Below, piece by piece: positions 39,796-61,176 of a stretch of DNA of 64,000 nucleotides. Source of the DNA: Thermoplasmatales archaeon (GTDB lineage: Archaea > Thermoplasmatota > Thermoplasmata > Thermoplasmatales > Thermoplasmataceae); contig DAIDBH010000017.1 in NCBI GenBank assembly GCA_027310185.1, positions 1 to 64,000 on the forward strand. The letters are read 5' to 3'. Under the pieces are notes generated by a model. It was not told where the DNA came from, did not search any database, and was given only the letters and a program-made list of their open reading frames with translations. Position 1 is the stretch's first letter; every line of letters begins with the position of its first letter. The position numbers and the translations under genes were made by a program.

Positions 39796-40872
39796 ATGAT
39801 AAAATCAGTAAAATTTAAAAAACTGAATCTTGAGATGAAGAAACCTTTCAAGATTGCTTTGGGCTCAACAGATTTTTATGAGGGATTCCTGGTTTCCATT
39901 GAGACAGATGATGGCATAACAGGATACGGTGAGGCTACCACAACACCATTCATTACAGGAGATACCATGGGCTCAATAGAGAGCGAACTTTCATTCTTCT
40001 CAAAGAAGCTGATCGGAGAGGAAGAATCACCTGAGATTGTAAATACAAAGATGAAGGCGTGGATGAGATCATCCAAGGCAAGCAGGAATGCAATTGACTG
40101 TGCACTCTGGGACATCATAGGAAAGAGGGCAAACATGAACCTTGTAAAATTGCTGGGAAATCATAAGAAATCAATCCTGACTTCATACACCGTTGATCTG
40201 GTTGATGCAGAGACTGCGAAATCACAGGCTAAGGAGCTGTTATCACAGGGTCTCAGGGTTTTCAAGATAAAAGTCGGATCCGGGATTGAGGAAGATTTGA
40301 AAAGAGTAAAGGTTGTGAGGGATGTGGTTGGGGAAGATAAGATGATCTACATAGACTTCAACCAGGCATATAACGTTAAAAATGCTGTCAGGATATCAAG
40401 ATTACTGGAACCTTACAATATAGAATTCATGGAACAACCCATTGCTTCCACAGATATTTCTGGATTGCGTTTTATAAGGGATCATTCTGAAATTCCTGTC
40501 TATGCAGACGAGACCATTTTCACGCCACAGGATGTTTCTGAAGTTCTTAGAAGGGAAGCTGTGGATGGAATAAATATCAAGCTGATGAAATCTGGAGGAA
40601 TCTCAGATGCAATGCAGATGGCAAACACTGCAAAATCATTTGGTGTGCCAGTGATGATAGGATGCATGGTTGAAACGAGGATTGCGAACACTTCTGGCCT
40701 CATAGTTGCACTGAGCAACTCTGCAGTTAAATATGCTGATCTTGACGGATACAATAACATAAAGGAGGACCCTGTTACAGAAGGAATTCTGATGAATAAG
40801 GGAGAAGTGAGCTTATCAGCAAATCTACCTGGAACAGGTATAGCTGTGAGGGAGAAATTCCTTAAAGCATGA
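39796..40872 (+). CDS. L-Ala-D/L-Glu dipeptide epimerase (enolase superfamily)
   Basis: KIK, DFNQ, EQP, ADE, NIKLMKSGG, GCMVE and the DLDG motif typical of dipeptide epimerases (YcjG/YkfB). Confidence 0.9.
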   Translation: MIKSVKFKKLNLEMKKPFKIALGSTDFYEGFLVSIETDDGITGYGEATTTPFITGDTMGSIESELSFFSKKLIGEEESPEIVNTKMKAWMRSSKASRNAIDCALWDIIGKRANMNLVKLLGNHKKSILTSYTVDLVDAETAKSQAKELLSQGLRVFKIKVGSGIEEDLKRVKVVRDVVGEDKMIYIDFNQAYNVKNAVRISRLLEPYNIEFMEQPIASTDISGLRFIRDHSEIPVYADETIFTPQDVSEVLRREAVDGINIKLMKSGGISDAMQMANTAKSFGVPVMIGCMVETRIANTSGLIVALSNSAVKYADLDGYNNIKEDPVTEGILMNKGEVSLSANLPGTGIAVREKFLKA

Positions 40873-40880: not shown

Positions 40881-42290
40881 TCAACTCATAAATCCAAATG
40901 CCTTCATTATTGCTCCAACTATTACTGAAGGCTTCTTTGAATATGCACTTATATATCCCATATTTTCTGAAATTATTCCAAGATCGCCGTCAAAGCTTGT
41001 GGATATGAATACGCATATGTTTCTTTCTGAAATCTCATTCAGTAACTTCACCCTTGACCTCAGATGCTCGTTCCTCCCTACAAAGATAATCTGTCTTCCT
41101 GCATCTTTCATGTTCTCTAAGAACTCTATGCCATAATGTAATTTCAGATCCAGGTTCAAACTACCAAGATGGGAAGATACAAGATTTGTAGATTTTGTTA
41201 TTTCAGCCACCTGGCTTTCGTCCTTTGAATCCATCAGAACAAGATCAGTTTCCTTCTCGGGATCAAGCATCTTCACTCTTCTTACAATAGGGGAAACAGT
41301 CTCAACGGACTTCAGGAGATATGGGGATGGCCTGTGTGACATTTTCCTGACCGGTTCCATGAATTCAAGGATTCTCTGTTCCTTCTTTTTCAATAATGCA
41401 TTATCTATCTTCTGAATTTCTTCATAGAATTCCATGGAGCCTACAATATCTGCATTCTCCAGTACATCAACCTCATTTTTAATGGAACCCTTGATAATTT
41501 CTGAAACGTCATACCTTCCCTTTATTGCCTTCATGTCCATGGAATCTGAAATTATGAGGTTCTTATAATTGAAATCCTTTCTGAGCAATTTCTGTACTGC
41601 TGATGACAGAGTGGCTGGATAGTTATCATCCAGGGAATTGTAGAGAACATGAGAAAGCATTATGGAACTGACGCCCGCTTCAGCTGCCTTCCTGAATGGA
41701 TATGCATCGTTTATTATGGATTCTATATTCCTCCTATCTTCAGGTAAATCAACGTGGGAATCAACCATTACAGATCCATGACCGGGGAAGTGCTTTGCTG
41801 TTGCCCGAACACCATAGGACTGAATACCCCTGATGAATTCCACGCCATGCTTTGCAATGAGTTCAAGATCAGATCCAAAGGATCTCTCAAGAATTACTGG
41901 ATTGTATCCATTTAGGGTATCCAGAACAGGAGCCAGGTTCCATCTTATTCCCAGGGAGTTTAGCTGGTATCCGGTGAGTCTTCCAACATAATTTGTGAAT
42001 TTAGGATCATCAAGCTTTCCAAGGAACAGGTTGCTCGGGTTGTAATCAATCCATGGAATCCTTACCACGTTTCCCCCTTCCTGATCCACTGCAATGAAAG
42101 GTGCATCAACATTGTTTTCCACAACGTATATGTGGTTTATCTTCTTTATCAGTTCAGCCAGTTCCTTCTCATCCCTGAAATCATTGCTGAACAGCACTAC
42201 AGATAGGGGCAACATCTTCGAGACATACCTCAGGCTTTCTTCCCTCTCTACACCTCTGAGGCCTGTCTGAATGAATAATCCTGATCTCAT
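40881..42290 (-). CDS. nagZ: GH3 beta-N-acetylglucosaminidase
   Basis: VDQEGGNV, APVLD, ERSFG, KHFPGHG..VDSH NagZ signature, SDSMDM. Confidence 0.92.
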   Translation of the reverse strand: MRSGLFIQTGLRGVEREESLRYVSKMLPLSVVLFSNDFRDEKELAELIKKINHIYVVENNVDAPFIAVDQEGGNVVRIPWIDYNPSNLFLGKLDDPKFTNYVGRLTGYQLNSLGIRWNLAPVLDTLNGYNPVILERSFGSDLELIAKHGVEFIRGIQSYGVRATAKHFPGHGSVMVDSHVDLPEDRRNIESIINDAYPFRKAAEAGVSSIMLSHVLYNSLDDNYPATLSSAVQKLLRKDFNYKNLIISDSMDMKAIKGRYDVSEIIKGSIKNEVDVLENADIVGSMEFYEEIQKIDNALLKKKEQRILEFMEPVRKMSHRPSPYLLKSVETVSPIVRRVKMLDPEKETDLVLMDSKDESQVAEITKSTNLVSSHLGSLNLDLKLHYGIEFLENMKDAGRQIIFVGRNEHLRSRVKLLNEISERNICVFISTSFDGDLGIISENMGYISAYSKKPSVIVGAIMKAFGFMS

Positions 42291-42333: not shown

Positions 42334-43977
42334 CTATTTTGATTGATTATCCATGACCTGAATTTCAACAGATGATGGAAACTGATTTCCATGGAAAACG
42401 TTCTGTTCTGCAATTTTATAATTTCCAGTATCATACTGCTTTCCTGTTAGATTCTGGTTCCTGGCATATTTTGGAAAGGCACTGGATGATATTTCAATCC
42501 TCATTCTGTGATCTTCCCTTATTTCATGTAGCATATACCACATGTCAATGTCTATCCTGATGATTTTTCCAGGTTCATATGGGATTTCCTCAAATGGGCC
42601 ATTTCTATACCTCAATCTTGTTATACCGTCCTGAAGCCTCTGGGCATATCCATCAGGATGCACATCCAGAATCTTCATGGTAAAGTCGGTATCCTCACAA
42701 TCTGAGGATACATATATTCTTCCTGTGATTCTTCCGGCAATTATCAATCCACCTTCCATTTTCCCCGAAGTGTAGACCAGGATATCCTTCCTCTTTTCTA
42801 TTTCGGAATAATCATCCGGCCCCCCAATCTGGGCAAATCCCTCACCAGACAGGTATGGAACTGGATTCATTGGATCATATGAGAACTGATCATTTCTCAT
42901 TCCATACGAAGGTATATCCAAACTCAGGCTCCCATCACCCAGTATGCTTGATGCACTTTTTTCTGATGACAGGTACATATTAACGATTTTACAGTTTTTG
43001 AGTGGCCATTCATTGGATTTTATCCACCTGTTAGGTCCCATGGCAAAAACCCTGACTCTATCCTCATCCCTCACATTCCTCTTTTCAAGGATTGTGTTGA
43101 TCCATTCAGATTCTATTTCAACAAGATCTAGCTTAGAGTCCTTTCCAAAATCAATGTGATCATTCTTTATGTCCCTGTTAACTGCATGTCCCCATGGACC
43201 TATTATGAGACTCTGATTATTCCTTGAAAATTCACTTCTGGAATTTTTTCTCATATTCTCATAATTTATGAATGTGCCTATCTGCTCATCATCGTACCAT
43301 CCTGAAATATGCATTACCGGAAGATCAAGGGAATTCATCTTTCCCTGGTAAAATAGAGGTTTCCAGAATTCACTTTCCGGCCTGTTTATGAAATACTGCC
43401 TCCAGAATGGGATATCAACTCCAATTTTTTCAGGCATGGAAATTAATGGTAAATGTCTGTAGACTTCTTCCCAGTCCACGCTGTTGATATTCTGCATTCC
43501 TCTTCCCCTGAGTGAGAACAGCCATGAGAGGTTCATGGGTGAAGTGTAAACTGATGGATTCTCAACAAAGGGATCTGATGGTGGGACAATACTTATCATT
43601 CCCCTAAGATGTTCAGGTTTCCTCAATGCAGTGAGCCACTGGATCCTTCCTGAATAGGATGCTCCCCATGTGATCACGTTCCCGTTGGACCATGATTTGG
43701 TGGCGAATTCTTCAATGAGCCTGGAACCATCTTCTGCCTCTGAAAAATATGGCGTGAATGTTCCATCTGATTCTCCCCTTCCCCTCACGTCATTTGCAAT
43801 GAATACGAAACCCATTTTGTTGAATTCCATTGCTGTGTTTAGCAACTCGTCTGAGTTCTTTCCGTATGGAGTCCTGAAAAGTATTACCGTGTTCCTTCCC
43901 TTTTCTACTGGTAGGTAGATATCTGAGGACAATTCGATTCCGTCCCGCATTTTAGTTCTTTCATCATAAATAATCAT
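42334..43977 (-). CDS. CocE/NonD-family hydrolase (S15 peptidase-like)
   Basis: MRDGIELSSDIYLP, RTPY, DVRGRGESDG, GASYSG, GWYD, GPWGH, SSSAFP. Confidence 0.92.
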   Translation of the reverse strand: MIIYDERTKMRDGIELSSDIYLPVEKGRNTVILFRTPYGKNSDELLNTAMEFNKMGFVFIANDVRGRGESDGTFTPYFSEAEDGSRLIEEFATKSWSNGNVITWGASYSGRIQWLTALRKPEHLRGMISIVPPSDPFVENPSVYTSPMNLSWLFSLRGRGMQNINSVDWEEVYRHLPLISMPEKIGVDIPFWRQYFINRPESEFWKPLFYQGKMNSLDLPVMHISGWYDDEQIGTFINYENMRKNSRSEFSRNNQSLIIGPWGHAVNRDIKNDHIDFGKDSKLDLVEIESEWINTILEKRNVRDEDRVRVFAMGPNRWIKSNEWPLKNCKIVNMYLSSEKSASSILGDGSLSLDIPSYGMRNDQFSYDPMNPVPYLSGEGFAQIGGPDDYSEIEKRKDILVYTSGKMEGGLIIAGRITGRIYVSSDCEDTDFTMKILDVHPDGYAQRLQDGITRLRYRNGPFEEIPYEPGKIIRIDIDMWYMLHEIREDHRMRIEISSSAFPKYARNQNLTGKQYDTGNYKIAEQNVFHGNQFPSSVEIQVMDNQSK

Positions 43978-44027: not shown

Positions 44028-45239
44028 TTAATACAGCATTATTTCTTTTATCTTTTCCCTGTATCTCCTCAAATCTTCCTGATAATTTTCTATAATATCT
44101 ACAGGATTCGCTCCTGATATGGTCCCATTTCTTATTTCCCGGTTTCCTGCAACAGAATCGAAATAGTGATCATGGAATTCTATCTTATCAGGGTGCAATC
44201 CATATATGGATGATATTAGATGGACCACAAATTCAAATGGCCTGAAAATATTCCTGTTGATCACGTTGATCATAAGTCCATTGCACTTCTCACCGGTGTA
44301 CTTGGAAAAATATGGCTTGAATCTTATCTCATTGAGCATGACTCCTGCAGGATTATGTTTCTCAAGATCGGAGATCAGCTTTCCTGCATCAAGCCATGGA
44401 GCTCCTATAATCTCAAATGGCTTTGTTGTTCCCCTTCCCTCCGATATGTTTGTTCCTTCTAGGAGGACACACCCTGGATACACTGTGGCTGTATTCAAAG
44501 TTGGCATATTTGGGGAAGGCATGGTCCATGGGATTCCCAGCTGATCATACCACATATCTCTTTTCCATTCCTTCATTTTAACTACGTTTAGCCTGACCGT
44601 TTCCTTTGCCATATTACGATTGAAGAATGTTGCAATTTCCCCTACTGTTAAGGAGTGTTTTACTGGTACTGGCATAGCACCGATAAAGGATTGAAGATTA
44701 TCCAGAAGCAATGGTCCATCAGGATTGTTTCCACTCAAAGGATTTGGCCTGTCAAGAACAATAAAATCTATGTCAGTGCCGCCCGTTATTTCCATGGCAT
44801 ATACCATGGTAGCAATATATGTATAAATCCTGCATCCCACGTCCTGAAGATCGAATATCAGGGTGTCAAACTGATCAATGATCTCTCTTGAAATCAATTT
44901 TGAGGAGTCCTTGATTGAATCGGTCTCCCTCATTTCCCTGTCAATATCATTAGAACCTGAACTATTTTTAGAATCAGGTTTCCTGTAAAGACTTTCTACC
45001 TGAACCCCAAGTGCAGAATCATAATATGATTCGACAGTCTCTCCAGACTGGTAATCACCAAAATAACCGTGCTCAGGAGTGAGGAGGGTAAGGCTTTTGT
45101 AACCACCAACTTTCTTCACTATCTCAAGGGATGATTTTCCTTCCCGGTTTCTTGCAGAGTTGTTTGTTATCAGGCCAACTCTCTTGCCTTCGATGAATTT
45201 TTCCCTTATGGAACCTATCTGGTCAATTCCCATCAGCAT
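44028..45239 (-). CDS. namZ: Exo-beta-N-acetylmuramidase NamZ (DUF1343, GH171)
   Basis: GLITN, PEHG, FDLQDVGCRIYTY, LDRPNP, PSPNMP, EGTNISEGRGTTKPFE; start moved to 45239; no signal peptide. Confidence 0.93.
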   Translation of the reverse strand: MLMGIDQIGSIREKFIEGKRVGLITNNSARNREGKSSLEIVKKVGGYKSLTLLTPEHGYFGDYQSGETVESYYDSALGVQVESLYRKPDSKNSSGSNDIDREMRETDSIKDSSKLISREIIDQFDTLIFDLQDVGCRIYTYIATMVYAMEITGGTDIDFIVLDRPNPLSGNNPDGPLLLDNLQSFIGAMPVPVKHSLTVGEIATFFNRNMAKETVRLNVVKMKEWKRDMWYDQLGIPWTMPSPNMPTLNTATVYPGCVLLEGTNISEGRGTTKPFEIIGAPWLDAGKLISDLEKHNPAGVMLNEIRFKPYFSKYTGEKCNGLMINVINRNIFRPFEFVVHLISSIYGLHPDKIEFHDHYFDSVAGNREIRNGTISGANPVDIIENYQEDLRRYREKIKEIMLY

Positions 45240-45298
45240 GGCTGCATATTGGTAGGAAGAATTTAAATTATAATGTTTGTTGTTTCCCTCGCAAACAA

Positions 45299-45988
45299 TC
45301 ACAGGCTTTTTGTGACCCGACCTATCTTTTCAAATATTTCATGAAGACTTTTTGAGTATTTACTTCCATCAAAAAGATTATTCACCGACACGCTTGCAGA
45401 ATTTCCATTGGCATGTATCATGTTCCCATCACCAAGGTAGAGACCCACATGACCCTTGAAAAATACAAGGTCTCCCGGTTTTGCGTTGTCAAAGCTGTCA
45501 ATGGTGGTGGTGAAATCCCTCTGTGCCCCAGAATTCCTTGGAATCTGTATACCTGTGAATTTATAAAGCCGTTGAACAAAACCTGAACAGTCATAACCAA
45601 ATTCAGAGGTTCCTCCCCATAGGTATGGTACACCAATAAACTCCTTGGAAAGATCACAAACAGAGAAATTGTTGTCTGAAAACCTGATAAGCTTATTATC
45701 AGGTATACTGTATTTTTCAGCCTCTTCCTTGCTTACATAGGAACCGAATGGTAGTTTTATTTCTGGGTGGCTGTGGAATCTTCTTAACTTGAATGCTTTC
45801 TCAGTGTGTTCAGTTATTATATTTGTCTTCACGTATCCTTTAACATGATCCTGGGTTTGAATTAAAGAATAGGCGTCTCCCCTTTCCAGGAGGTCAAATC
45901 TTTCTCCAAAAACTACCTGTGTTTCTCTTTCAGATTCAAACATTGCCTTACTTCTTAAATCTCCTACACCTATCCGTACCTGATACAT
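45299..45988 (-). CDS. SH3-like + NlpC/P60 gamma-D-glutamyl endopeptidase (YkfC-like)
   Basis: ETQVVFGE, GVPYLWGG...YDCSGFVQ, PRNS, PGDLVFF.GHVG, MIHA. Confidence 0.92.
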   Translation of the reverse strand: MYQVRIGVGDLRSKAMFESERETQVVFGERFDLLERGDAYSLIQTQDHVKGYVKTNIITEHTEKAFKLRRFHSHPEIKLPFGSYVSKEEAEKYSIPDNKLIRFSDNNFSVCDLSKEFIGVPYLWGGTSEFGYDCSGFVQRLYKFTGIQIPRNSGAQRDFTTTIDSFDNAKPGDLVFFKGHVGLYLGDGNMIHANGNSASVSVNNLFDGSKYSKSLHEIFEKIGRVTKSL

Positions 45989-46206
45989 CGTGCAAGATAT
46001 CCCTTAGGGATATGAAACTTATTATTGCTTACTGATCTCTTTAATACCTGAATTTTGGAATTATATAAAGGTAGATTCGAATCAATAGAGTCACTATGGT
46101 TATCTTTCCTAATTTCAATGTTGGAAAGATAACATCACACCTATGGAATTAAGACTAAGGTATTATATTAAAGAAGCACTTTTAGTAAGGAACCTGTGAG
46201 AAGAAC

Positions 46207-46737
46207 ATGAATGTTGTAAATGTGATAATTTTGCTGGGATGCCGATCATCTGGATGCGCCCCCACTGAAGAGCTTAAGGGTAGGGCAGGAGAAGCAGTGA
46301 ATTTATATAGGTCCCTCAATGGAGAAGCAATTATAATCCCATCAGGCGGAGTCACGGAGAAGGGATGCGGAATATCAGAAGCTGAATTTATGTTAAGAGA
46401 ACTTTTGAAATATGGCATCCCCAGAGAAAAGATAATTATGGAGGAAAAAGCTGGAACCACTATCGGAAACGCATTCTTTTCAAAATTGCTTTTGGAGAGA
46501 AATGGAATCGAGTACGAGAAGATTCATATTATCAGTTCATGCTATCACATGAAGAGATCAGAGTATATTTTCAAAAATATATTTTCTATAGATGATATTG
46601 GAACTGGTTATTGCTTTGGAGAGTCAATGGAAAGAGAAAGTGAAACAGAAAAACTCCGTAGGGACTCCATGATTTTGAAAAATATCAGAGGAAGATCTAC
46701 AGAAGAGGTGGAGAATAATTTCAGGGAATATCTCTGA
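46207..46737 (+). CDS. YdcF/ElyC/SanA (DUF218) family protein
   Basis: IILLG, SGG...SEAEFM, EEKAGTTIGNA, SSCYHMKRS. Confidence 0.9.
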   Translation: MNVVNVIILLGCRSSGCAPTEELKGRAGEAVNLYRSLNGEAIIIPSGGVTEKGCGISEAEFMLRELLKYGIPREKIIMEEKAGTTIGNAFFSKLLLERNGIEYEKIHIISSCYHMKRSEYIFKNIFSIDDIGTGYCFGESMERESETEKLRRDSMILKNIRGRSTEEVENNFREYL

Positions 46738-46776
46738 AGATTGAAAATATTTTTTTAATCGTAAGATATTGTGCCG

Positions 46777-48069
46777 CTACTCATATTTTTTAGCAATTTC
46801 ATGGAATTTTGTGTGCCTAACAAGATCCTCGAAATTATCCCCTTCCCTTATTGTTATAATTTTCCCATCTGTGAACAGTAATTCTCTTGGAAGAAGCCTG
46901 CCATTGTAATTGCTTGCCATTGACATTGTATACGCCCCGCAGTTGAAAACAGCAACCGTATCTCCAGTGTGTGGTTCTGGCAATATAATATCCTTTCCTA
47001 TCCTGTCAGTATTTTCACATATTTGCCCTGTGACATCTGTTTTAAATGTTCTTTCCTCATCCATCCTGTTTGCTATTAGTATATGATGATAAGCACCGTA
47101 AAGAGCGGGCCTCATGAGCAGGTTCATGCCTATATCTGTACCTGTAAAGTTTGACTCCTGAATTTTCACATCTGTAATCTTCCCGATTAACAACCCCATG
47201 TTGGAACTTATATATCTCCCAGGTTCAATCACAAGCCTGGGCAATTGTCGACCTTTTCCAGAGTAAAAAGCCGTAAATATTTCTGCTATGTTTTTTGCAG
47301 TGGCAATGATGTCTAATTCCTCTTCCTCCGGCCTGTATGGTACTCCAAATCCACCTCCAATGTCCACGAATTCAAATTCTATACCCAGCTCTTCCTCAAA
47401 ATTTTTTACAACTTCAAGAATCTTTTGAGATACTAATTTGAAGTGGTCCGCGTTTCTAACATTGGATCCGGCCATAACATGTATTCCAAATCTCCTGCAC
47501 CCCTTCTCCTTTGCTTCCCTGTATCCCTGTAATGCGAATTCCGGAATTTCGCCAAATTTAGCACCCTTGCCTGCCGTCTTGATGCCAGGAAACTCCCCCT
47601 TTCCATAATCGATCTTAATCCTGAAACTCACTATTTCTGGTAAGTGATCACCTGCCAATCTGAACTGAGATAGAGAATCAAAGTTAATGGTTATATTCCT
47701 GTCTATTGCATATCTCATTTCCTCTGGTGTAACATTATTTGGTGTAAATGATATATTATCGGGAGATACGCCACTTACAAGAGCTATTTTAATTTCGTTT
47801 AATGATGATGCATCCATTCCACATCCTTCCCGTGCAAGTAAGGAGATCAGTGAAGGGTTGAAATTTGATTTTATTGCAAAATCTATGGAAATATTTTTGA
47901 AATACCTAAAGAAAGCATCTCTTATTCGTTTATAATTAGAAATAAGAATCTTTTCAGAATAAAGGATGGAAGGTGTTCCATAGTCCCTTGCAACCTTTAA
48001 AACGTCAATTCCATCCCAGAATAAATTTCCATTTCTGTTTTCCGCATAACGTGGCAGGATTTCATCCAT
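46777..48069 (-). CDS. lysA: Diaminopimelate decarboxylase
   Basis: FAIKSN (PLP lysine), KFG, HVMAGS, DIGGGFG, EPGRY, RPALYGAYH, ICENTD, GAY..MASNYN. Confidence 0.93.
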   Translation of the reverse strand: MDEILPRYAENRNGNLFWDGIDVLKVARDYGTPSILYSEKILISNYKRIRDAFFRYFKNISIDFAIKSNFNPSLISLLAREGCGMDASSLNEIKIALVSGVSPDNISFTPNNVTPEEMRYAIDRNITINFDSLSQFRLAGDHLPEIVSFRIKIDYGKGEFPGIKTAGKGAKFGEIPEFALQGYREAKEKGCRRFGIHVMAGSNVRNADHFKLVSQKILEVVKNFEEELGIEFEFVDIGGGFGVPYRPEEEELDIIATAKNIAEIFTAFYSGKGRQLPRLVIEPGRYISSNMGLLIGKITDVKIQESNFTGTDIGMNLLMRPALYGAYHHILIANRMDEERTFKTDVTGQICENTDRIGKDIILPEPHTGDTVAVFNCGAYTMSMASNYNGRLLPRELLFTDGKIITIREGDNFEDLVRHTKFHEIAKKYE

Positions 48070-48242
48070 TTTATGTCATTTTATCTAGGTTATTTAACAT
48101 ATCTAGTGAGTGTCAAATCCCTGCCTTCACTGCCCTGGAAATAAGAGGTTAAAAGTAATAGAAATTTTCTCATGGAATCTAAAATCAATTGCAAGTTTTT
48201 GTGGACAGTTTATGTTTATATTTTGCTGGCCGAACTAAATTT

Positions 48243-49253
48243 CTAAATTCTGGAATGGATCATCTTTTTCATCTTCAGATATCGATATTCCAGGATAGTT
48301 TTAGTTAAAGCGGCTTCGGGAATCACATATTCAAAACCATGGAATATGCCCTCATAAACATGCAGATCCACCCTTCTCTTAGAGTTAAGAATTCTACTGG
48401 CAAATGCAACTGATTCGTCCCTGAAAACCTCATCAAACCCAACTTCTATATAAGTTTCTGGAAAACCTTCCAGATCAGTTGCAAGTGATGGAGAAGCAAG
48501 TTCTGATACCTCTTCCTGTGAACCAAGATAGCCTTTCCATCCAAGTTTGTTATAGTATGTTGACCAGAATGGCCAGTTACCATCATACTGTGTGCTTGAA
48601 AGGCTATTGTTCTTGTAATCAAGCATCGGTGCCATAAGAAAAAGGTTCCTTATTTGGGGGCCATTTTCCCTGATTGAGCGTATAGCGACGGATGCTGCAA
48701 GACCTCCTCCAGCGCTTTCTCCCATTACAGATAATCTTTCAGCATCAATTCCAAGTTTCTCAGCATTGTTGTAACAGTATTGAAATCCAATATAACAGTC
48801 ATCTTGAGGTGTGGGGAATTTAAATTCAGGAGCCAGCCTGTATTCTATGTCCATAATGATGCAGTCCAGTGTCTTTGAAATTAAGGCCATCCTATTTATG
48901 TCCTCATCTATTCCTCCAACGAGTAGACCCCCGCCATGTATATGATATATGCATGGAAGATGATCTCTTGCCCCAGCTGGTGAATAGACCTTTGCCCTGA
49001 TGTGCGTGCCAGGAGATAAATCATCTATATCTTTGATATCAACTGCAGGCACTGCAACTGATTCTGAAGTGTCCTCTGAAGATTTTCTAGAATCCAGTAA
49101 ATATTGCTTGAATTTCTCAACCCTTTCATCCACGTTAGAGATTTTGTCTAAATTTTCAATGTTCTTTCCAACAACCAGAGACCTCCTTTCTGCCTCTCCT
49201 TTAACTTCCTCCACAAGGTCGTATACCTTGGGATGAATTCGGTCTGCTTCCAT
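48243..49253 (-). CDS. HSL-family alpha/beta hydrolase (esterase)
   Basis: HGGG, YRLAPE, GESAGG, D...HGF; start probably 49253. Confidence 0.92.
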   Translation of the reverse strand: MEADRIHPKVYDLVEEVKGEAERRSLVVGKNIENLDKISNVDERVEKFKQYLLDSRKSSEDTSESVAVPAVDIKDIDDLSPGTHIRAKVYSPAGARDHLPCIYHIHGGGLLVGGIDEDINRMALISKTLDCIIMDIEYRLAPEFKFPTPQDDCYIGFQYCYNNAEKLGIDAERLSVMGESAGGGLAASVAIRSIRENGPQIRNLFLMAPMLDYKNNSLSSTQYDGNWPFWSTYYNKLGWKGYLGSQEEVSELASPSLATDLEGFPETYIEVGFDEVFRDESVAFASRILNSKRRVDLHVYEGIFHGFEYVIPEAALTKTILEYRYLKMKKMIHSRI

Positions 49254-49579
49254 TGGAAGTATAATGCTTCCTGAATGAATAATTATTCTCATTAATGCTC
49301 AGTGAGATGCTTTAAACGCGAAATTCAACATCGCATCTCAAATATTCAGACAAATATTAAAGCGCACAAACAATTATTTAGAATAAAATTAAATAGTCTC
49401 ATTTCAGGGGTGGAGGTTATTCTTTTAATCGATGTGAAAAATGGGTGAAGATTAGTATTGATAGTGATAGGAAAAAATCTGTTGAATTTTAGATGTGATT
49501 ATTACAAAGGCGATTATATGGAGGAATTAAGGATATCCTGGGATAAATAATATTATTATGTTAATTCAGATACAATCCA

Positions 49580-50680
49580 ATGCCATTTAATCTTGGAATT
49601 GAAAATCTTGCAAGGAATAACGTGAATGAGAATGCAGCCCTATTAACAAATGCAAGCGGAGTCATTCAGCATTTAGAGCAGAATGTTGATTTCCTGCTGA
49701 AGAAGGGCTTTAAAATAAAGAAGATATTTACAGCAGAGCATGGATTTTATGGAACGCTTAATGATGGGGATGATGTCAAAAATGAGACCTATAACGGAAT
49801 CGGTGTCATATCAATATATTCTGCAGATAGAAAGTCCATAAAACCAGAAGAACTTGAAGATGTGGATACAGTCGTATATGACCTGCAGGATGCCGGAACA
49901 AGACCATATACATTCATCTCTTCCCTTAAAAATCTGTTGATTACCGCCTCAGAGCTTGGAAAGAAAGTTGTTGTGTGTGATCGGCCAAATCCGCTTTCCA
50001 ATGTTATAGAAGGACCTGTTTTGAAAAGAGAATTCGTTTCATTTGTTGGTGCCGATGAATTCCCACTGAGATACGGGATGACCATTGGAGAATTAGCTCA
50101 ATTCATGAATAGAAACATAAGTTCAGATCTAAGTATATCAAAGATGACGGATTATGATCCTTCTAGATATTATGATTATCATTTGAAATATTATGTCCCA
50201 CCGTCACTGAATCTCAATTCGCTGGATTCAATGTTCAATTTTTCCGGGATGGTATTGCTGGAAGCAGCTAAAGTAAGTGTTGGCAGAGGGACTCCCTATC
50301 CATTCCTGCAGTTCGGTATGGAAAATCTACCAGACCTGAAACCAGATGAATTCGAAGGTGTGATTCTGCGGAAGACCTCATTTATCTCATTGCTTGATCC
50401 TCTTAAAGATAAGAAACTCAAAGGGTATTTTATCCATATAAAGGATAGAAAACTTTACAGCAGCATAAGGATGGTTGCTTCCGTCATGAAGAAGATCTAT
50501 GAGATGGACAGGACCCTGATCAATTTCAAAAAGTTGAATCTCAATTACGGTTCTGATGAGATGTCAAAATGGCTGGAGAGAAATGGAACAGTGCTGGAAC
50601 TTTATGAGCAGATGGATTCAGAATGTGCTGGGTTCTTGAATACCAGAAAAGATTACGCACTTTACAAGTCACCTTCTTAA
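49580..50680 (+). CDS. namZ: Second NamZ/DUF1343 paralog
   Basis: LLTN, AEHG, YDLQDAGTRPYTF, DRPNP, RYGMTIGELA, VGRGTPYPF. Confidence 0.88.
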   Translation: MPFNLGIENLARNNVNENAALLTNASGVIQHLEQNVDFLLKKGFKIKKIFTAEHGFYGTLNDGDDVKNETYNGIGVISIYSADRKSIKPEELEDVDTVVYDLQDAGTRPYTFISSLKNLLITASELGKKVVVCDRPNPLSNVIEGPVLKREFVSFVGADEFPLRYGMTIGELAQFMNRNISSDLSISKMTDYDPSRYYDYHLKYYVPPSLNLNSLDSMFNFSGMVLLEAAKVSVGRGTPYPFLQFGMENLPDLKPDEFEGVILRKTSFISLLDPLKDKKLKGYFIHIKDRKLYSSIRMVASVMKKIYEMDRTLINFKKLNLNYGSDEMSKWLERNGTVLELYEQMDSECAGFLNTRKDYALYKSPS

Positions 50681-50730
50681 AGTGTCCAAAATCTCCCTGT
50701 ACCAGGATTGCTTTGACTTTTCGCCTTTTT

Positions 50731-51702
50731 TCACTCAACCATGGATTCCATAGGTTCAATATATGGTTCTGATTCTGTTATTCTGACCCTCAGATTGAGT
50801 GGGATTAACATCTGTTCATTTCCATGCCCAAAAGGTGCCATTGCAAGGGAGGGTTTTGCATTCTTTACCATGTATTCCTTAATCACATCTTCAATAGATG
50901 GCTTCCCTTCTCCCGAGGTTGATCTATTTTTGAATTCGCCGAATACAAATCCTGAGAGCTGGTTGATAGTGCCATTAAGCGTCATTATATCCAGATATCT
51001 TTCTATATCAACCGATCTTTCATTCGTGTCCTCGCAGAATAGAACCTTTCCATTGAATTCTGGCATATATGGCGTGCCAGTTAGGGATGAAAAGACGGAC
51101 ATGTTGGTTCCCATGGACCTCCCCTGTGCACTTCCTTCAACCACATATTTTACCAGTCTTTTTATGTAAGGCTTCAGATCTGACAGTTCTCCCCTGAAAA
51201 TCCTGAACATTATTTCCAGTTTTTCTCCACGAAATTCTTCTGTATCCGTATCTGGCATTGGACCATGGAATGTAACAAGTCCGGAAAGCTTATTTATGGC
51301 CATATGAAGATTTGTTATATCACTGTAGCCCATGAATATCTTGGGGTGCTCACGTATAACATCAAAGTCAAGAAACGGTAAAGTCTGTCTTGCACCATGG
51401 CCTCCTCTTGCACAGAATATTGCCTTTACATTATCGTCCGTAAAGGCATCCATTAATTCCTTAGCCCTTAATTCAGGGTTTGCAGAATGGTAATTATCCT
51501 GGTTAAGCTTTTTCACGTTGATGCCGTAAGTGACTCTATAACCAAGTTTAGTTATTTCTTCTGCAGATTGACTTAGAGGTATAATTTCAGGGTAACTTGA
51601 GGGAGCGATTATTCTTATTTCTTCACCTATTTTCAGTCTAGATGGTTTTATTACCTCTTTCTGTTCCTTATAATCTTCATAGCTTCCTTTCATTTTATTC
51701 AA
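50731..51702 (-). CDS. ldcA: S66 muramoyl-tetrapeptide LD-carboxypeptidase
   Basis: IIAPSS, ARGGHG, GYSDIT, FHGPM, CED, FGHG (Ser-Glu-His triad). Confidence 0.92.
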   Translation of the reverse strand: MNKMKGSYEDYKEQKEVIKPSRLKIGEEIRIIAPSSYPEIIPLSQSAEEITKLGYRVTYGINVKKLNQDNYHSANPELRAKELMDAFTDDNVKAIFCARGGHGARQTLPFLDFDVIREHPKIFMGYSDITNLHMAINKLSGLVTFHGPMPDTDTEEFRGEKLEIMFRIFRGELSDLKPYIKRLVKYVVEGSAQGRSMGTNMSVFSSLTGTPYMPEFNGKVLFCEDTNERSVDIERYLDIMTLNGTINQLSGFVFGEFKNRSTSGEGKPSIEDVIKEYMVKNAKPSLAMAPFGHGNEQMLIPLNLRVRITESEPYIEPMESMVE

Positions 51703-51901
51703 TTTGTAATATGGACTCCATATAATAAATTTTTAATTGGCTAAAAGAAACCTTTTACTAACTTCCTTGGAATAAATAATAAACAGAGTTTTTTAAATTC
51801 AAACACTGAATCCCCAAAAACTCTGTCAATAATATAATAGTAGAAATTGAAATTGAGCTTACAATAACATGATAAAATAAAAAAGTGATAAAGATTTGTT
51901 A

Positions 51902-51924
51902 TGCCAGAAATTATTTATCTGGCA
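51902..51924 (-). terminator. Hairpin followed by T-rich tract downstream of the peptide-binding protein gene
   Basis: TGCCAGA-N9-TCTGGCA about 15 bp after the stop; followed on the minus strand by CTTTTATCACTTTTTTATTTT. Confidence 0.5.
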
Positions 51925-51939
51925 CAATAGTTTTAAAAA

Positions 51940-54900
51940 TTAGTTTTTAGGTATTTTCGGTTTTCTAATGAGGAAAACACCAGCTACAGCTACGATTGCT
52001 ATAACAGCAACCACAACACCAACCACGACGTAAAGATAGGTACTTGATGTTGGCTTAACAACCTTCTCATTTACAGTGTAATTGACATATGTATATGCTG
52101 GAAGTATAGAACTGCCTGATGTGCTTGCCATTGCAACAATGCTTTCGTTGACGTCCACATATGTGCCCTTGCCAGTTGTTGAATTCCCAACTTTGAATGA
52201 GAATACCGCCACACCTGCGCTATTTGTTGTCAAGTTTAACCCGCTACTACCTACCGTTATTCCCTTCAGATCATAGGATGTTATATTCACGAAAGCTCCT
52301 GAAACCGGAGTCCCGTTCTTAGTAACTGTGAAAGTTATTTCACCTTTCTGACCTGTAGTGTAATTAGTGCTTCCTATTGAATATGACATTACAAGTGATG
52401 GGTTCATGACGAAGACGTTGTTGTATGTATATCCCGCACCTGTTTGGTTCTGATTTCCTACAGATGCAACTGCAGTGATGTTTATCTGCTGGTAATATAG
52501 ATACATTGGATTTCCTGATGAACCAATTGTTGTCATTAGTTTGGAAAGTGCTCTGGGAATTGTGAATGTGAAGTTTGTACTGTTTCCTGTAGATGTGTTG
52601 AAAGTGAATGCGCTGCTACTTATGCTTCCCGGTATTCCAGTCATTACTACAGTTATATTTGCATCTGTTACATTTGCTCCCGTATTGTTTTGAACAGTAT
52701 ACATGATAGTACCACTATTGCCTGCATAGAGATGAGAGTTCCCTGAATATTTAGAAGTGACTGACAGACTATTTTTCTCGTTTGTATTCAAGAGTTCTAT
52801 ATTAAGGTAAGTTGATGTTGTAGTTGTGTGAATATCCTTTGCTGGTGGGTTGACTGTTGCAGAAATGTTAACCTCTTCGTTAGGTAAATTGATAATCTGA
52901 CCACTTGATGATGTTGTTTGTAGAAGCAGGTTGAGATTATTGAATACCTGATACTTCCAGATTGCCTGTCCAGCTGAATTTGTGATGAGCTGGTTTGAAG
53001 TTGTGTTAATCAGACCTCTAGCTATGGATGAGACAGATATACTTACAATTGCCCCCTGCACTGGCATTCCTGTGGTCTTGTTAATAACGGTATAGGTTAT
53101 GCTTCCAGAGTTCCCTTCCTTTTCAACTAGAGCACCACTTAATTTCTGCTGCACCTCAATGTTGTACTTGTAGCTTACAGATGATGTTATCTTTGCCTTG
53201 TATACTTCTGTCAGGGTAAAGTAAAGACTGAAAAGGCTGTTGGAGTTTTCTGTTGTAAAGTTTGAGAATTGGCCTGTCTGGAATGCTTCCATATTAGTGA
53301 AATATCCAAGGTTTATGAGAGTTGCTTCTTCATTGATTAATGTCTGAATTTCCTTTGATAAATGAACTGCCTGTTGTATGGTCTCAGCCTGCAGTAATTC
53401 ATTTGATAGATTTGTTAGAAGTGAAGTAACCTGCTGACCTGAAAGATGCTTTCCGTTAAAGTTCAAAGAGGTATATGGTCCGAGCGTGCAACCAACACTG
53501 AAATAGGCTGGAGCATCATTAATGAATAGTGCACAAAGGTCGGCTGGATCGCCAGATTCTGTCCCCTGTCCATATATTGCCATCTGGTAGAAGTTTCCCT
53601 TCCCAGTTACGGTTTGGTATATATTGTCAAACATGGTTGAATATGCCTCTTCCTTTATGATCGTCTTGATCCCAAGAGCTGCGAATGATGTTGACATCTC
53701 ATTAGCAATTTCAACTGCACAGGGAGTTTCACTTCCAGGTGCGATCTGGAGTTCTATGCTTACCTGCTTTCCATTGTAGGTCAATGTGCCTGATTGATTG
53801 CTCATTCCAGGAATACTCTTGATCATGGAACTTGCCTTTTGCATATTATAGGTATATTGAGGACTAGTTGAATTATACCAAAGTACATTACATGGTGGTA
53901 CAGTGTTCGACGAAGGTGTTAAAAGTCCGTCATAGACTGTACCATCAATGGTTTGATAGGGTGTTGCATAACTCAAAGCCTGCCTGAAAGTGGTGATATT
54001 CAATGGAGTTTCGTTCTCATTGATTCTCACAGCACAGAATACCTGAGATGGCTTTACGTAAATATATGCTCCCGGTGTTCCTTTAACCAGTGAAAGGAAA
54101 GACGGAGATACTGGAAGGAGATCTAGCTGTCCCTTTGTGAAAGCGGCAACCATTGAAGACTGCGAAGAATAGTATGGCTGATAGAACTCATATATTTTTG
54201 GAGAGTATTGTCTCAAGCCACTGCTTTTGTTTGCATATTGAGCGAAGAAGTAAGGATTGACATAGTATTTATTATATTGATTTGGCAAGATTCCTCCTTC
54301 CGGCATTCCGTATCCATTGTTTACCATGAAAGGCCCATCCCCTACCAATCCCGGAGCAGAACCTGTTGCAGTGTTCCAGCCAAGGTCCCATCCATAATAA
54401 CCATTTCCTGATGAAATGCCAGGAGTATAGTTGAAAAGTCCTTTTACACTTGTAAAGTCATGGTGAACCCATATGTGGTAAGGAAGTATGTAAGATTCAA
54501 GAGAACTTGAACGTATTAACAGTGTTGGCTTCGGTACGAATATCTTGACAGAAAGGTTTCCATTTGGAATTACATTGACTACTCCTGGCCACCCTCCCAG
54601 TGCAGACTCCATTCTCCAGCTAAGAACAACATCAGCAGACTGCAGATAATACTTTTTCATAACGGTTGGTGAATAGCTTGTATATGTGTGTGTGAAAGGT
54701 GCTCCTGTTGCATTGTTATAATCAACCTTGTTCGAGAAGGTGTATGTTTGTGAAGCATTTGCTTTTGACCAGTCCGTCCACTGGACATACGGTCTCAGAT
54801 TTACCGTGTATACATATGAGTAATTTACCATGCTACCTGTTTCAATGTCAAAGGTTTTATTGTTTGACGTGACGTGAGTTAATGTATAGTTTGTTGCCAG

Positions 54901-55254
54901 CCATGGTTCAATCTGTCCATTAGGCATTGTTTTGTATAAACTTCCATATATTAACTGATAGATAAACAAATCACCAAATGTTATACCTGTGAATGTATTC
55001 AAATCGCCTATAGTATAGTCTAAACCACAGGTGAACGTTCCATTGGTATAACCGGGCTCTTGCATGGTAGTTGTTGGCATTTGCCACGGAGTTGCTGATG
55101 AACTTTCAGGCTGCGCACCCAACTGACTAATCTGACTAATACCAGTATTTGCTGAGGATGTATTAATTGGTACTGATGCTCCAAATACAAAAAATGCGGA
55201 GCCTACCATTAACAATACCATAAATACTGATAAAACAATTTTCTTATTTATCAT
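51940..55254 (-). CDS. Large ABC family-5 (OppA/DppA-like) peptide-binding protein with C-terminal beta-rich stalk and TM anchor
   Basis: Signal peptide; LIYGSL..PWLA, SADVVLSW, ILPYHIW, GDGPF, PLNITTFRQAL; repeated PVxGAxV...TNSAG Ig-like units; C-terminal TM helix. Confidence 0.88.
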   Translation of the reverse strand: MINKKIVLSVFMVLLMVGSAFFVFGASVPINTSSANTGISQISQLGAQPESSSATPWQMPTTTMQEPGYTNGTFTCGLDYTIGDLNTFTGITFGDLFIYQLIYGSLYKTMPNGQIEPWLATNYTLTHVTSNNKTFDIETGSMVNYSYVYTVNLRPYVQWTDWSKANASQTYTFSNKVDYNNATGAPFTHTYTSYSPTVMKKYYLQSADVVLSWRMESALGGWPGVVNVIPNGNLSVKIFVPKPTLLIRSSSLESYILPYHIWVHHDFTSVKGLFNYTPGISSGNGYYGWDLGWNTATGSAPGLVGDGPFMVNNGYGMPEGGILPNQYNKYYVNPYFFAQYANKSSGLRQYSPKIYEFYQPYYSSQSSMVAAFTKGQLDLLPVSPSFLSLVKGTPGAYIYVKPSQVFCAVRINENETPLNITTFRQALSYATPYQTIDGTVYDGLLTPSSNTVPPCNVLWYNSTSPQYTYNMQKASSMIKSIPGMSNQSGTLTYNGKQVSIELQIAPGSETPCAVEIANEMSTSFAALGIKTIIKEEAYSTMFDNIYQTVTGKGNFYQMAIYGQGTESGDPADLCALFINDAPAYFSVGCTLGPYTSLNFNGKHLSGQQVTSLLTNLSNELLQAETIQQAVHLSKEIQTLINEEATLINLGYFTNMEAFQTGQFSNFTTENSNSLFSLYFTLTEVYKAKITSSVSYKYNIEVQQKLSGALVEKEGNSGSITYTVINKTTGMPVQGAIVSISVSSIARGLINTTSNQLITNSAGQAIWKYQVFNNLNLLLQTTSSSGQIINLPNEEVNISATVNPPAKDIHTTTTSTYLNIELLNTNEKNSLSVTSKYSGNSHLYAGNSGTIMYTVQNNTGANVTDANITVVMTGIPGSISSSAFTFNTSTGNSTNFTFTIPRALSKLMTTIGSSGNPMYLYYQQINITAVASVGNQNQTGAGYTYNNVFVMNPSLVMSYSIGSTNYTTGQKGEITFTVTKNGTPVSGAFVNITSYDLKGITVGSSGLNLTTNSAGVAVFSFKVGNSTTGKGTYVDVNESIVAMASTSGSSILPAYTYVNYTVNEKVVKPTSSTYLYVVVGVVVAVIAIVAVAGVFLIRKPKIPKN

Positions 55255-61131: not shown

Positions 61132-61176
61132 TCTTGGTACATTGATACTCAAATATTTCAAATCTTAATTTTGGTG

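Follow-up and report, generated by a model that had tools for sequence, protein, structure and literature searches.

The window, by which is meant the whole analysed stretch of 64,000 nucleotides of contig DAIDBH010000017.1 (assembly GCA_027310185.1), comes from a Cuniculiplasma-like archaeon and contains a muropeptide-catabolic gene cluster of about 23 kb (34268-57584) that encloses a lysA gene. The gene families were assigned by Pfam and NCBIfam profile searches, in which 49 ORFs with a minimum length of 80-120 aa were scanned. At one end of the cluster, the minus strand carries genes for a BadF/BadG/BcrA/BcrD-family ATPase (34268-35287), a candidate amino-sugar kinase; for a protein matching the beta-lactamase/PBP4B-fold family (35318-36427), a candidate MurNAc-L-Ala amidase which we take to resemble B. 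subtilis AmiE; and for an SIS-domain protein (36421-37566) that is similar, below the cut-offs, to the isomerase half of GlmS and to GlcN-6-P deaminases. They are followed on the plus strand by the genes of the GlcNAc-6-phosphate deacetylase NagA (37718-38878; TIGR00221, 282.7 bits, cut-off 225.65), the MurNAc-6-phosphate etherase MurQ (38922-39743; NF003915, 308 bits, cut-off 168) and an enolase-superfamily dipeptide epimerase similar to L-Ala-D/L-Glu epimerases (39796-40872). The last of these contains MR_MLE domains and scores 225 bits with NF041118, below the cut-off of 500; its best matches among solved structures are the dipeptide epimerase 3jva (216.9 bits) and the L-Ala-D/L-Glu epimerase 1jpm (188.6 bits).

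Profile matches on the minus strand then identify a NagZ-like GH3 beta-N-acetylhexosaminidase (40881-42290), an S15 CocE/NonD-family hydrolase (42334-43977) and a first copy of the exo-beta-N-acetylmuramidase NamZ (44028-45302). The adjacent gene (45299-45988, minus strand) encodes a YkfC-like peptidase combining SH3 and NlpC/P60 (C40) domains (NLPC_P60, 7.6e-27; SH3_16, 3.9e-06). Its best match of known structure is 3h41 (78.9 bits), the matches also include chains named 'dipeptidyl-peptidase VI', and some of its relatives bear the JGI name gamma-D-glutamyl-L-lysine dipeptidyl-peptidase. Among its relatives are also proteins labelled Parvarchaeota and Nitrososphaerota. It is proposed that this protein is an endopeptidase of the bond between gamma-D-Glu and meso-diaminopimelate (meso-DAP), which would set DAP free.

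The lysA gene (46777-48069, minus strand) is convergent with a DUF218 protein gene (46207-46737, plus strand), which is kept beside it in genus mates, and has an Abhydrolase_3 esterase gene upstream (48243-49292, minus strand, profile matches). The remainder of the cluster comprises a second namZ recognised by its profile (49580-50680, plus strand), an LdcA-like LD-carboxypeptidase of family S66 (50731-51702, minus strand), an SBP_bac_5 solute-binding protein of 1104 aa (51940-55254, minus strand, profile match), which is a candidate muropeptide receptor, and an S13 D-Ala-D-Ala carboxypeptidase family protein (55489-56598, plus strand; TIGR00666, 113 bits, cut-off 107.8). The LdcA-like protein, predicted to convert tetrapeptides to tripeptides, matches both S66 domains (N-terminal 4.3e-37, C-terminal 3.9e-26) and reaches 103 bits with the LdcA model NF008424, for which the cut-off is 378. 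A GNAT protein, found by profile match, is also encoded within 34268-57584.

The original prediction described lysA as lying among peptidoglycan hydrolases with no dapA, dapB, dapD, dapE or dapF nearby. The second half of this description stood: none of the 49 scanned window ORFs matched the DapA, DapB, DapD or DapF families, and the M20 (ArgE/DapE-superfamily) hydrolase at 61177-62277 fell far under every DapE cut-off (for example, 73 bits with TIGR01246 against 361.8). The first half needs rewording, as the proteins of the cluster look like cytoplasmic dismantlers of muropeptides and not like wall-lytic enzymes. In a crude hydropathy scan, the SBP_bac_5 protein was the only cluster product with hydrophobic N- and C-terminal segments, and neither an ABC permease/ATPase partner for it nor a wall-lytic enzyme was identified within the cluster.

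Identity and predicted active site of LysA

The lysA gene is an ATG-to-stop ORF of 430 aa occupying exactly 46777-48069 of the minus strand, and no second lysA was found in the genome. Its product scores 329.8 bits (E 1.8e-98) with the NCBIfam equivalog TIGR01048; a chance family match is excluded because this is above the curated cut-off of 297.9. Both expected Pfam domains are present, Orn_Arg_deC_N (PF02784, 2.4e-42) and Orn_DAP_Arg_deC (PF00278, 1.2e-19). The closest solved structures are all DAP decarboxylases, 1tuf giving 217 bits. The protein thus belongs to the same family, with the same fold-type III PLP architecture, as the biosynthetic LysA enzymes of M. jannaschii (1tuf/1twi) and T. 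maritima (2yxx), and the PLP lysine and the GGG, EPGR, RPxxY, CE and GAY motifs are common to them. By eye, a TTAAATA sequence about 22-28 bases upstream of the lysA ATG may be an archaeal TATA box.

Residues K67, D86, E282, R285, R320, C351-E352 and Y380 align with K46, D65, E246, R249, R285, C314-E315 and Y343 of T. maritima LysA, whose roles in PLP and DAP binding are described in the accessible text of PMC8277567. The PLP and phosphate motifs are kept, with K67 as the PLP lysine, G238-G240 (GGG), E282 (EPGR) and Y380 (GAY). The predicted distal site for DAP comprises R285 and R320, which would hold the carboxylate, and E352, which the partner subunit would contribute to hold the amine; the two arginines and the Cys-Glu pair are retained in all 38 aligned LysA sequences of the order Thermoplasmatales. 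The PLP-stacking histidine of the HxHxGS motif (His179 in T. maritima) is replaced by Met199 in the window protein ('GIHVMAGS'). Methionine occupies this position in 33 of the 38 order sequences, and histidine in all six sequences encoded beside dapF in other genomes of the phylum. The accessible portions of PMC12599289 and PMC8503589 state no role for the motif histidine.

LysA might have quite another role, either consuming protons as an acid-resistance decarboxylase paired with an exchanger or decarboxylating ornithine, lysine or arginine for polyamines. The hosts are extreme acidophiles, and the unusual exchange of histidine for methionine could go with a change of function. A preference for ornithine or arginine had been named originally as a finding that would count against salvage, and the predicted distal site points the other way: R285, R320 and E352 fit DAP, and ornithine and arginine decarboxylases have Asp in place of Glu at the position of E352, according to the accessible text of PMC8277567. 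The models of other decarboxylases are also matched far below their cut-offs (D-Orn/D-Lys decarboxylase 138.9 against 700 bits, speA 45 against 624, nspC 25 against 409), and the spermidine synthase gene lies on another contig (C1), unlinked to lysA. Such a role is considered improbable.

Most of lysA is covered by an RNA-library contig (run X10) that spans 46204-47987 with zero differences. The RNA-library contigs of this run break between genes, whereas the DNA run yields a single contig of even depth. Their depths of 16 to 1122, the greatest falling on the SBP_bac_5 gene (51940-55254), are unusable for ranking genes, and uncovered stretches such as 47988-48110 are uninformative. The contigs come from one sample, possibly the source of the window DNA, and RNA libraries can contain DNA. 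For C. divulgatum, protein amounts of LysA (CSP5_1681), the NlpC/P60 protein (CSP5_1679) and LdcA (CSP5_1596) are given in Table S2 of PMC7285479.

DAP and AAA pathway genes in the genome

The contigs of the genome, which is 99.54% complete, were searched with profiles of the DAP and AAA pathways. DapF had no match. The best DapL match (84 bits against 364.7; 223 against 593 with DapC_direct) was a generic aspartate-aminotransferase-like protein. The sole Ddh match, of 31.8 bits and N-terminal (C18:224310), belongs to an archaeal type II GAPDH (456.7 bits). DapD of the succinyl type gave no match, and that of the acetyl type gave 58 bits against 231.75. A single DapB (145 bits, cut-off 122) was found on a different contig from lysA. 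A DapA-family protein, also on another contig, has DapA as its best family and remains under the cut-off (148.8 against 206 bits), with a close score for KDG aldolase (129 bits). Asd is present elsewhere in the genome (354.9 bits). The description of lysA as an 'orphan' is correct in that no full DAP pathway was found, and has to be qualified by the lone DapB.

The front end of the AAA pathway, homocitrate synthase and homoisocitrate dehydrogenase, was not found in the genome. The only candidate for the former was an HMGL-like protein (C1:75431-76474; 162 bits against 413.55), whose gene is grouped with those of a family III CoA-transferase, a LeuCD-like hydratase and an MFS transporter; this group is read as a catabolic cluster and not as one for lysine synthesis. 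The sole Iso_dh member is the NADP-isocitrate dehydrogenase. The LysW cluster on C4 adjoins argG and is taken as serving arginine synthesis; it could have a role in lysine synthesis if 2-aminoadipate came from elsewhere. Thus, the genome-wide search suggested by the original prediction bore it out for both pathways, and we infer from the gene content that the archaeon is unable to make its own lysine by known routes. C. divulgatum likewise is without a complete lysine pathway in the accessible text of Golyshina 2016 (PMC5155288).

It could be supposed that Asd, the DapA-like protein and DapB lead to tetrahydrodipicolinate, that unrecognised enzymes carry it on to meso-DAP, and that LysA is the last step of this de novo route, its position in the cluster being incidental. 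DapB and Asd are recognised by their models, DapA is the best family of the third protein, and nine of the 15 genomes of the order with DapB also carry lysA. With these facts in view, DapB may have some link to DAP metabolism. Nevertheless, a complete route of this kind is improbable. DapF, DapL, Ddh and DapD were not found, the DapA-like protein stays under its cut-off and is matched almost equally well by a KDG aldolase model, and DapF is absent from all 121 order genomes. DapB is lacking in 30 of the 39 lysA genomes, lysA is missing from a genome with two DapB matches (G098), and in the nine genomes with both genes dapB is never on or near the lysA contig. Outside the order, DapF occurs in 27 of 151 genomes of the phylum, and each of these 27 has a lysA match no more than 170 bases from dapF.

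Distribution and neighbourhoods of lysA in the order

Among the 121 genomes of the order, which as relatives are non-independent observations, lysA is above the cut-off in 39 and MurQ in 18. The co-occurrence of lysA and murQ in archaea, proposed originally as a check, is strongly positive within the order: all 18 MurQ genomes contain lysA (16 above the cut-off, G103 and G021 as contig-end fragments), and in 12 of them the two genes share a contig, 1-31 kb apart. NlpC/P60 was detected in 29 genomes, 27 of which have lysA (26 above the cut-off, G103 as fragments); the two exceptions, G045 and G048, are both 82% complete. Thirteen of the 39 lysA genomes have neither NlpC/P60 nor MurQ.

Loci centred on lysA, 8-20 kb each, were fetched for 35 cases in the order. 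A YkfC-like NlpC/P60 gene, an L-Ala-D/L-Glu epimerase gene or both share the locus with lysA in 18 of them, and compact NlpC/P60-epimerase-lysA triads occur in five, three of which are from genomes without MurQ. This position beside peptidase and epimerase is kept across at least nine genera, and dap genes were never found beside lysA in the 35 loci. The phylogenetic trees (FastTree and IQ-TREE quick with LG+G4, in agreement) placed the LysA proteins of the order, the window protein included, in a single clade with support 100, separate from six sequences of lysA-dapF genes of the same phylum, and the genes linked to peptidoglycan catabolism are scattered through this clade. The alignment and trees exclude the lysA sequences of G114, truncated at the end of its contig, and G044 (internal TAG), as well as the sub-cut-off lysA-like genes of G076, G039, G107, G051, G059, G090, G110 and G092.

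An orthologous APC amino-acid permease of about 590 aa directly adjoins lysA in ten of the 35 loci, in three LysA clades. The arrangement is reminiscent of the decarboxylase/antiporter pairs of acid resistance and is equally consistent with uptake of free DAP. In the window, no permease adjoins lysA, and the closest homologue in the genome, 34% identical, is on C18.

The loss of the remaining pathway enzymes also raises the possibility that lysA is a decaying, functionless relic. The lower HMM score could be a sign of this, 330 bits for the window gene against 434-477 in 26 of the 29 genomes outside the order, yet the lysA-dapF genes of G195 and G260 score similarly low (341-347). The reading frame is intact, and the catalytic and DAP-binding residues are conserved in each of the 38 order sequences. 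The retention of the gene beside peptidase and epimerase in so many genera, the RNA-library contigs covering it and the listing of its orthologue in a proteome table also speak against decay. Within the genus of the window, lysA is present or absent jointly with the cluster; lysA, MurQ and NlpC/P60 are found in the same three of nine genomes. Decay is therefore very improbable.

Proposed salvage of meso-DAP

It is likely that LysA converts meso-DAP derived from imported muropeptides into lysine and thus acts in salvage and not as a biosynthetic endpoint. The reuse of the enzyme, as put forward in the original prediction, is supported by the genome-wide absence of the pathway, the DAP-site residues and the co-occurrence of lysA and murQ. 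Fragments of bacterial peptidoglycan would enter the archaeon, probably via the large SBP_bac_5 protein, and would be broken down in the cytoplasm, with NamZ and NagZ stripping the sugars and the beta-lactamase-fold amidase freeing the stem peptide. The S13 DD-carboxypeptidase and LdcA would trim the latter to L-Ala-gamma-D-Glu-meso-DAP. The YkfC-like SH3-NlpC/P60 peptidase would then cut the D-Glu/DAP bond, the L-Ala-D-Glu dipeptide would pass to the epimerase, and the free meso-DAP would be decarboxylated by LysA at its D-centre to L-lysine. Without LysA, an organism lacking a DAP pathway would have no further use for free meso-DAP. The enzymatic steps, the direction in which they run and their setting in the cytoplasm are those that we infer from the predicted protein families.

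The murein peptides of B. subtilis and B. cereus are catabolised by YkfA (LdcA), YkfB (L-Ala-D/L-Glu epimerase) and YkfC (gamma-D-Glu-diamino-acid endopeptidase), and those of E. coli by LdcA, MpaA and YcjG; in these bacteria the freed DAP returns to wall synthesis or to the resident DAP/lysine pathway. An S66 LD-carboxypeptidase, an SH3+NlpC/P60 peptidase and an enolase-type dipeptide epimerase are likewise grouped in the window, the epimerase and LdcA being of the right families and both under the curated equivalog cut-offs. In contrast to the bacterial systems, the archaeal host has no peptidoglycan of its own, so that the process would be foraging and not recycling, and the cluster adds LysA as a putative fourth step consuming the released DAP. 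The grouping of MurQ, NagZ, NamZ and the beta-lactamase-fold protein also resembles the MurNAc/muropeptide rescue genes of B. subtilis (murQ-murR-murP-amiE-nagZ-namZ). The archaeal cluster differs from them in that it encodes neither a PTS transporter nor a MurR regulator and that uptake is probably ABC-type through the 1104-aa binding protein, and in joining the enzymes of the peptide arm and lysA. The window LysA itself differs from biosynthetic LysA in lying outside any DAP pathway.

Anaerobic ciliates have laterally acquired lysA, murQ, namZ and pbp4b, according to the accessible text of PMC13198582. Like the archaeon, they are wall-less consumers of bacteria with lysA and amino-sugar catabolic genes; they are eukaryotes, and that text describes no clustering of these genes. 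It assigns ciliate lysA to the degradation of amino acids, with no link drawn to DAP salvage. A literature search, with most subscription journals outside its scope, returned no publication describing a peptidoglycan cluster with lysA in an archaeon.

Peptides, which the archaeon is described as scavenging, are a further source of lysine, and the gain from LysA may be the disposal or use of DAP and not the supply of lysine. A wider reading, that throughout the order LysA is no longer biosynthetic and is kept only for scavenging exogenous bacterial meso-DAP, fed by muropeptides and, for free DAP, by the APC permease, with the exchange of histidine for methionine marking the shift, is held tentatively, its chances being slightly short of even. 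The permease linked to lysA is in any case a candidate DAP transporter. The food would consist of DAP-type walls, which are those of Gram-negative bacteria and many Bacillota. Since C. divulgatum is in culture and possesses the same cluster (LysA 83% identical), feeding experiments are feasible.

A wall-less archaeon without a DAP pathway keeps one DAP enzyme that is probably tied to imported wall fragments. This connects bacterial necromass with the nutrition of archaea in a concrete way that can be tested, and it is a clear example of the last enzyme of a biosynthetic pathway outliving that pathway through new partners. If true, salvage would account for the 'orphan' lysA annotations throughout Thermoplasmatales and for lysine synthesis being scored 'incomplete' in genome-based pathway calls. 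It seems most likely that the archaeon obtains lysine from dead bacteria, and, if the order-wide reading is true, the bacterial cell wall would be a source of lysine for the wall-less, lysine-auxotrophic archaea of acid mine communities.

The diaminopimelate decarboxylase gene and its surroundings

The ORF scan of the window places lysA at 46777-48069 on the minus strand. A domain search of the 430-aa product revealed the two domains that make up a fold-type III basic-amino-acid decarboxylase, and the protein scores 329.8 bits against the NCBIfam equivalog for diaminopimelate decarboxylase (cut-off 297.9). It is the sole lysA match in a profile search across its own genome. The nearest named relative among the best 120 matches listed is a protein of a C. 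divulgatum MAG (83% identity); the source names of these matches include Thermoplasmata, Marsarchaeota, Micrarchaeota, Thermoprotei and one mine drainage metagenome label, and none is bacterial.

The sequence was aligned to T. maritima DAPDC (2yxx), with residue roles taken from the relevant part of PMC8277567. The alignment showed that K67 (Schiff base), D86, E282 and Y380 are kept, as are R285 and R320 (distal carboxylate) and C351-E352 (distal amine). According to the same part of that source, ODC and ADC carry Asp where DAP decarboxylase has the distal-amine Glu. The lone defining feature that differs is the PLP-stacking His (T. maritima His179), replaced by Met199. In 33 of 38 aligned LysAs of the order Thermoplasmatales (loci L014-L077), Met occupies this position of the HxHxGS motif, and four of these also have Gln in place of the first His; HxH is kept in all six sequences taken from genomes of the same phylum outside the order, where the gene adjoins dapF.

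The original prediction placed lysA among cell-wall genes, and this was confirmed: domain and equivalog searches found genes of bacterial muropeptide catabolism spanning 34268-57584. The sugar arm includes a BadF/BadG-type kinase, a SIS GlcN-6-P deaminase-like protein, NagA, MurQ, GH3 NagZ and two NamZ proteins. The peptide arm comprises a beta-lactamase/PBP4B-fold protein, an S13 DD-carboxypeptidase, an S66 LdcA, an SH3+NlpC/P60 peptidase and an enolase-type dipeptide epimerase. Other members are a 1104-aa SBP_bac_5 binding protein, a DUF218 protein, an esterase, an S15 hydrolase and a GNAT protein. The top solved-structure match of the NlpC/P60 protein is 3h41, with further matches to chains named dipeptidyl-peptidase VI; those of the epimerase are dipeptide epimerase 3jva and L-Ala-D/L-Glu epimerase 1jpm. 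In a crude hydropathy scan, hydrophobic segments at the N and C termini were confined, among cluster proteins, to the SBP_bac_5 protein, so the enzymes are probably cytoplasmic and act on fragments after import. The SBP_bac_5 gene (51940-55254) has no ABC permease or ATPase genes as neighbours.

The DUF218 gene (46207-46737) is convergent with lysA and occurs at the same place, with 72-74% identity, in two genus mates; by tblastn, the clusters of genomes G106, G035 and G082 contain weaker homologues. A weak GATase_4 (Ntn-type) protein (57807-58577) has homologues of 31-38% identity in the lysA/murQ loci of G094, G025, G024, G032, G056 and G036 and is thus conserved as a member of the cluster. 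The GNAT gene (56676-57584) lies in a group with those of a GatA-family amidase (58815-60107), an M20 hydrolase (61177-62277) and an enolase of the OSBS/N-succinylamino-acid-racemase type (62292-63386; TIGR01928, 370 bits, cut-off 200.65). This four-gene group (56676-63386) resembles an acylate-racemise-deacylate route from D- to L-amino acids, and could act on wall-peptide D-Ala or D-Glu. The stretch 79-26272 contains a transposase of the IS110 family at the start of the contig, a GH1 enzyme, a truncated Fic/DOC gene and two sugar ABC loci under TrmB control that include genes for GH31 and alpha-amylase; the wall-salvage cluster therefore sits in an accessory region rich in carbohydrate uptake genes.

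Lysine and diaminopimelate routes in the genome

It had been proposed that this LysA serves salvage without a DAP pathway, a reading supported by the absence of DapF from the genome and by the order-wide co-occurrence of lysA and MurQ. The genome (1.88 Mb, 19 contigs) is rated 99.54% complete, the window being the initial 64 kb of its contig C1, and profile searches of the genome found no full DAP pathway: DapF and the succinyl type of DapD gave no match. The best DapL match (84 bits vs 364.7) is a generic aminotransferase, the Ddh match (31.8 bits) is GAPDH, and the acetyl type of DapD reached 58 bits vs 231.75. Asd is present. A lone DapB (contig C7, 49511-50314; locus L007, 6512-7315; 145 bits, cut-off 122) is flanked by genes for an MFS transporter and for acetyl-CoA synthetase and has no dap neighbours, and a DapA-family protein on contig C12 (148.8 bits, below the 206 cut-off) adjoins ribosomal protein L7Ae.

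A LysW-ArgC/LysY-LysZ-LysJ-LysX-LysK cluster is located on contig C4 directly before argG, and profile searches of the genome did not find the front end of the aminoadipate route. The sole HMGL-like protein (162 bits vs 413.55) has a CoA-transferase, a LeuCD-like hydratase and an MFS transporter as neighbours, and the sole Iso_dh member is NADP-isocitrate dehydrogenase. The cluster just past the window (contig C1, 72485-77955; locus L093) encodes the large and small subunits of a LeuCD/homoaconitase-family hydratase, a family III CoA-transferase, a short HMGL-like lyase/synthase and an MFS transporter, and looks like C5/C6-dicarboxylate catabolism rather than leucine/lysine synthesis. The gaps in both routes indicate that, by known routes, the organism can make neither meso-DAP nor lysine, save lysine from DAP via LysA. 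The available part of Golyshina et al. 2016 (PMC5155288) describes C. divulgatum as a scavenger whose lysine pathway is incomplete; muramic acid and murein do not appear in that part of the account.

Distribution, gene neighbourhoods and phylogeny

The same sample of 121 Thermoplasmatales genomes was used for every family counted; the genomes are kin, and the co-occurrence counts are therefore descriptive, not a statistical test. DapF was found in none of the 121, NlpC/P60 in 29 and, above cut-off, lysA in 39, MurQ in 18 and DapB in 15 (nine of them with lysA). The suggested check of lysA-murQ co-occurrence came out positive within the order: all 18 MurQ genomes contain lysA (16 above cut-off; fragments cut by contig ends in G103 and G021), and for 12 of these genomes lysA and murQ map to a single contig at a distance of 1 to 31 kb. 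Among the 29 NlpC/P60 genomes, lysA is above cut-off in 26 and present as fragments in G103; the two without it (G045, G048) are both 82% complete. It is above cut-off in 13 of the 92 genomes without NlpC/P60. In the window's genus, lysA, MurQ and NlpC/P60 occur in the same three of nine genomes (the window's own, G023 and G047), and the pattern is seen again in several genera (g1, g15, g22). In the nine genomes with both lysA and dapB, the genes are 296 kb apart or on separate contigs; two DapB matches were seen in G098, which has no lysA, MurQ or NlpC/P60.

The situation outside the order is different. In a sample of 151 Thermoplasmatota genomes, seven of them from the order, DapF was found in 27 and in none of the seven, and NlpC/P60 in only five. 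Of the 33 genomes with lysA, four belong to the order and 29 do not; 27 of these 29 encode DapF (G211 and G160, the latter 63% complete, do not), and in 27/27 DapF genomes a lysA match lies <=170 bases from a dapF match. The lysA score is 434-477 bits in 26 of the 29 vs <=386 in the order, the exceptions being G195 and G260 (341-347 bits) and G140, with a second, separate lysA-like match of 266 bits, below cut-off.

Altogether, 35 lysA-centred loci (8-20 kb) and five murQ-centred loci were searched with the cluster proteins of the window (tblastn, E <=1e-10, query coverage of half or more). NlpC/P60 and/or the epimerase are present in 18 of the 35 lysA loci, five of which (G052, G085, G028, G036, G056) have a compact NlpC/P60-epimerase-lysA triad; in three more of the 18 (G025, G013, G037), lysA is flanked by NlpC/P60 and the epimerase, and several of the triad or flanked-lysA genomes have no MurQ. 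In two loci, the sole feature is a 32-34% identical epimerase-family match. Ten loci (L051, L053-L055, L057-L062; G108, G096, G027, G011, G015, G073, G043, G100, G031, G095) have an orthologous APC amino-acid permease of ~590 aa directly adjoining lysA, and the G108 locus also has a 31% epimerase-family match. These permease copies are 49-98% identical to one another and span three LysA clades; the protein could serve as a transporter of diaminopimelate or form part of a decarboxylase/exchanger pair. One locus (G097) has a pair of large SBP_bac_5 genes plus an M20 peptidase near lysA, one (G055) an M19 dipeptidase, and three (G063, G035, G082) none of these contexts.

Trees of the 38 order LysAs and the six dapF-adjoining sequences, built with FastTree and IQ-TREE (LG+G4, SH-aLRT), agree. 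Rooted with only these six outgroup sequences of the same phylum, the order LysAs form a single clade (support 100), across which the LysAs of NlpC/P60 genomes are scattered. The permease-linked LysAs form two nested clades, with G108 apart. Genera g3 and g13 each contain two LysA types, which suggests transfer within the order.

The SH3 + C40 peptidase (single SH3) has close relatives (43-50% identity) named as Thermoplasmata, Parvarchaeota and Nitrososphaerota, and all six organism-named matches among the 120 listed are archaeal. Salvage of murein peptides may accordingly extend further among archaea.

Expression and the putative salvage route

The window stretch was found in two RNA-library runs of one sample, from which this DNA may itself derive. 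The contigs of one run, X10, end between genes or gene pairs, with depths of 16 to 1122. Contig 46204-47987 spans the DUF218 gene and the greater part of lysA and shows 0 differences; the others cover 44058-45970, 48111-49241, 49599-51683, 51892-55235 and 55545-57418. The SBP_bac_5 gene (51940-55254) has by far the deepest contig, 1121.8 vs 16-80 for its neighbours. A DNA run over the same stretch gave one flat contig at depth 16.5. The RNA contigs fit transcription of the cluster and are no proof of it. The available part of Table S2 of PMC7285479 gives quantified C. divulgatum LysA (CSP5_1681; 0.035% of fmol in one row), NlpC/P60 (CSP5_1679) and LdcA (CSP5_1596).

Family membership suggests the chemistry, while gene content, context and conservation are what was observed. 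The SBP_bac_5 protein would bind muropeptides for import, and NamZ and NagZ, with the kinase, MurQ, NagA and the deaminase, would direct the sugars to glycolysis. The amidase-like protein would release the stem peptide, the DD-carboxypeptidase and LdcA would trim it to the tripeptide, and the YkfC-like peptidase would set meso-DAP free. The epimerase would yield L-Ala-L-Glu, a substrate of ordinary dipeptidases, and LysA would convert meso-DAP to L-lysine.

The YkfABC, LdcA-MpaA-YcjG and MurQ/NamZ/NagZ routes are bacterial recycling pathways; here these routes are found in a wall-less archaeon, and LysA is attached. Literature searches found no paper on a wall-salvage cluster with lysA in a wall-less archaeon. 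A 2026 ciliate paper (PMC13198582) reports, in its available part, lateral acquisition of lysA, murQ, namZ and pbp4b, and that part makes no tie between lysA and DAP salvage. The interpretation that LysA, a terminal biosynthetic enzyme, was retained for foraging is supported.
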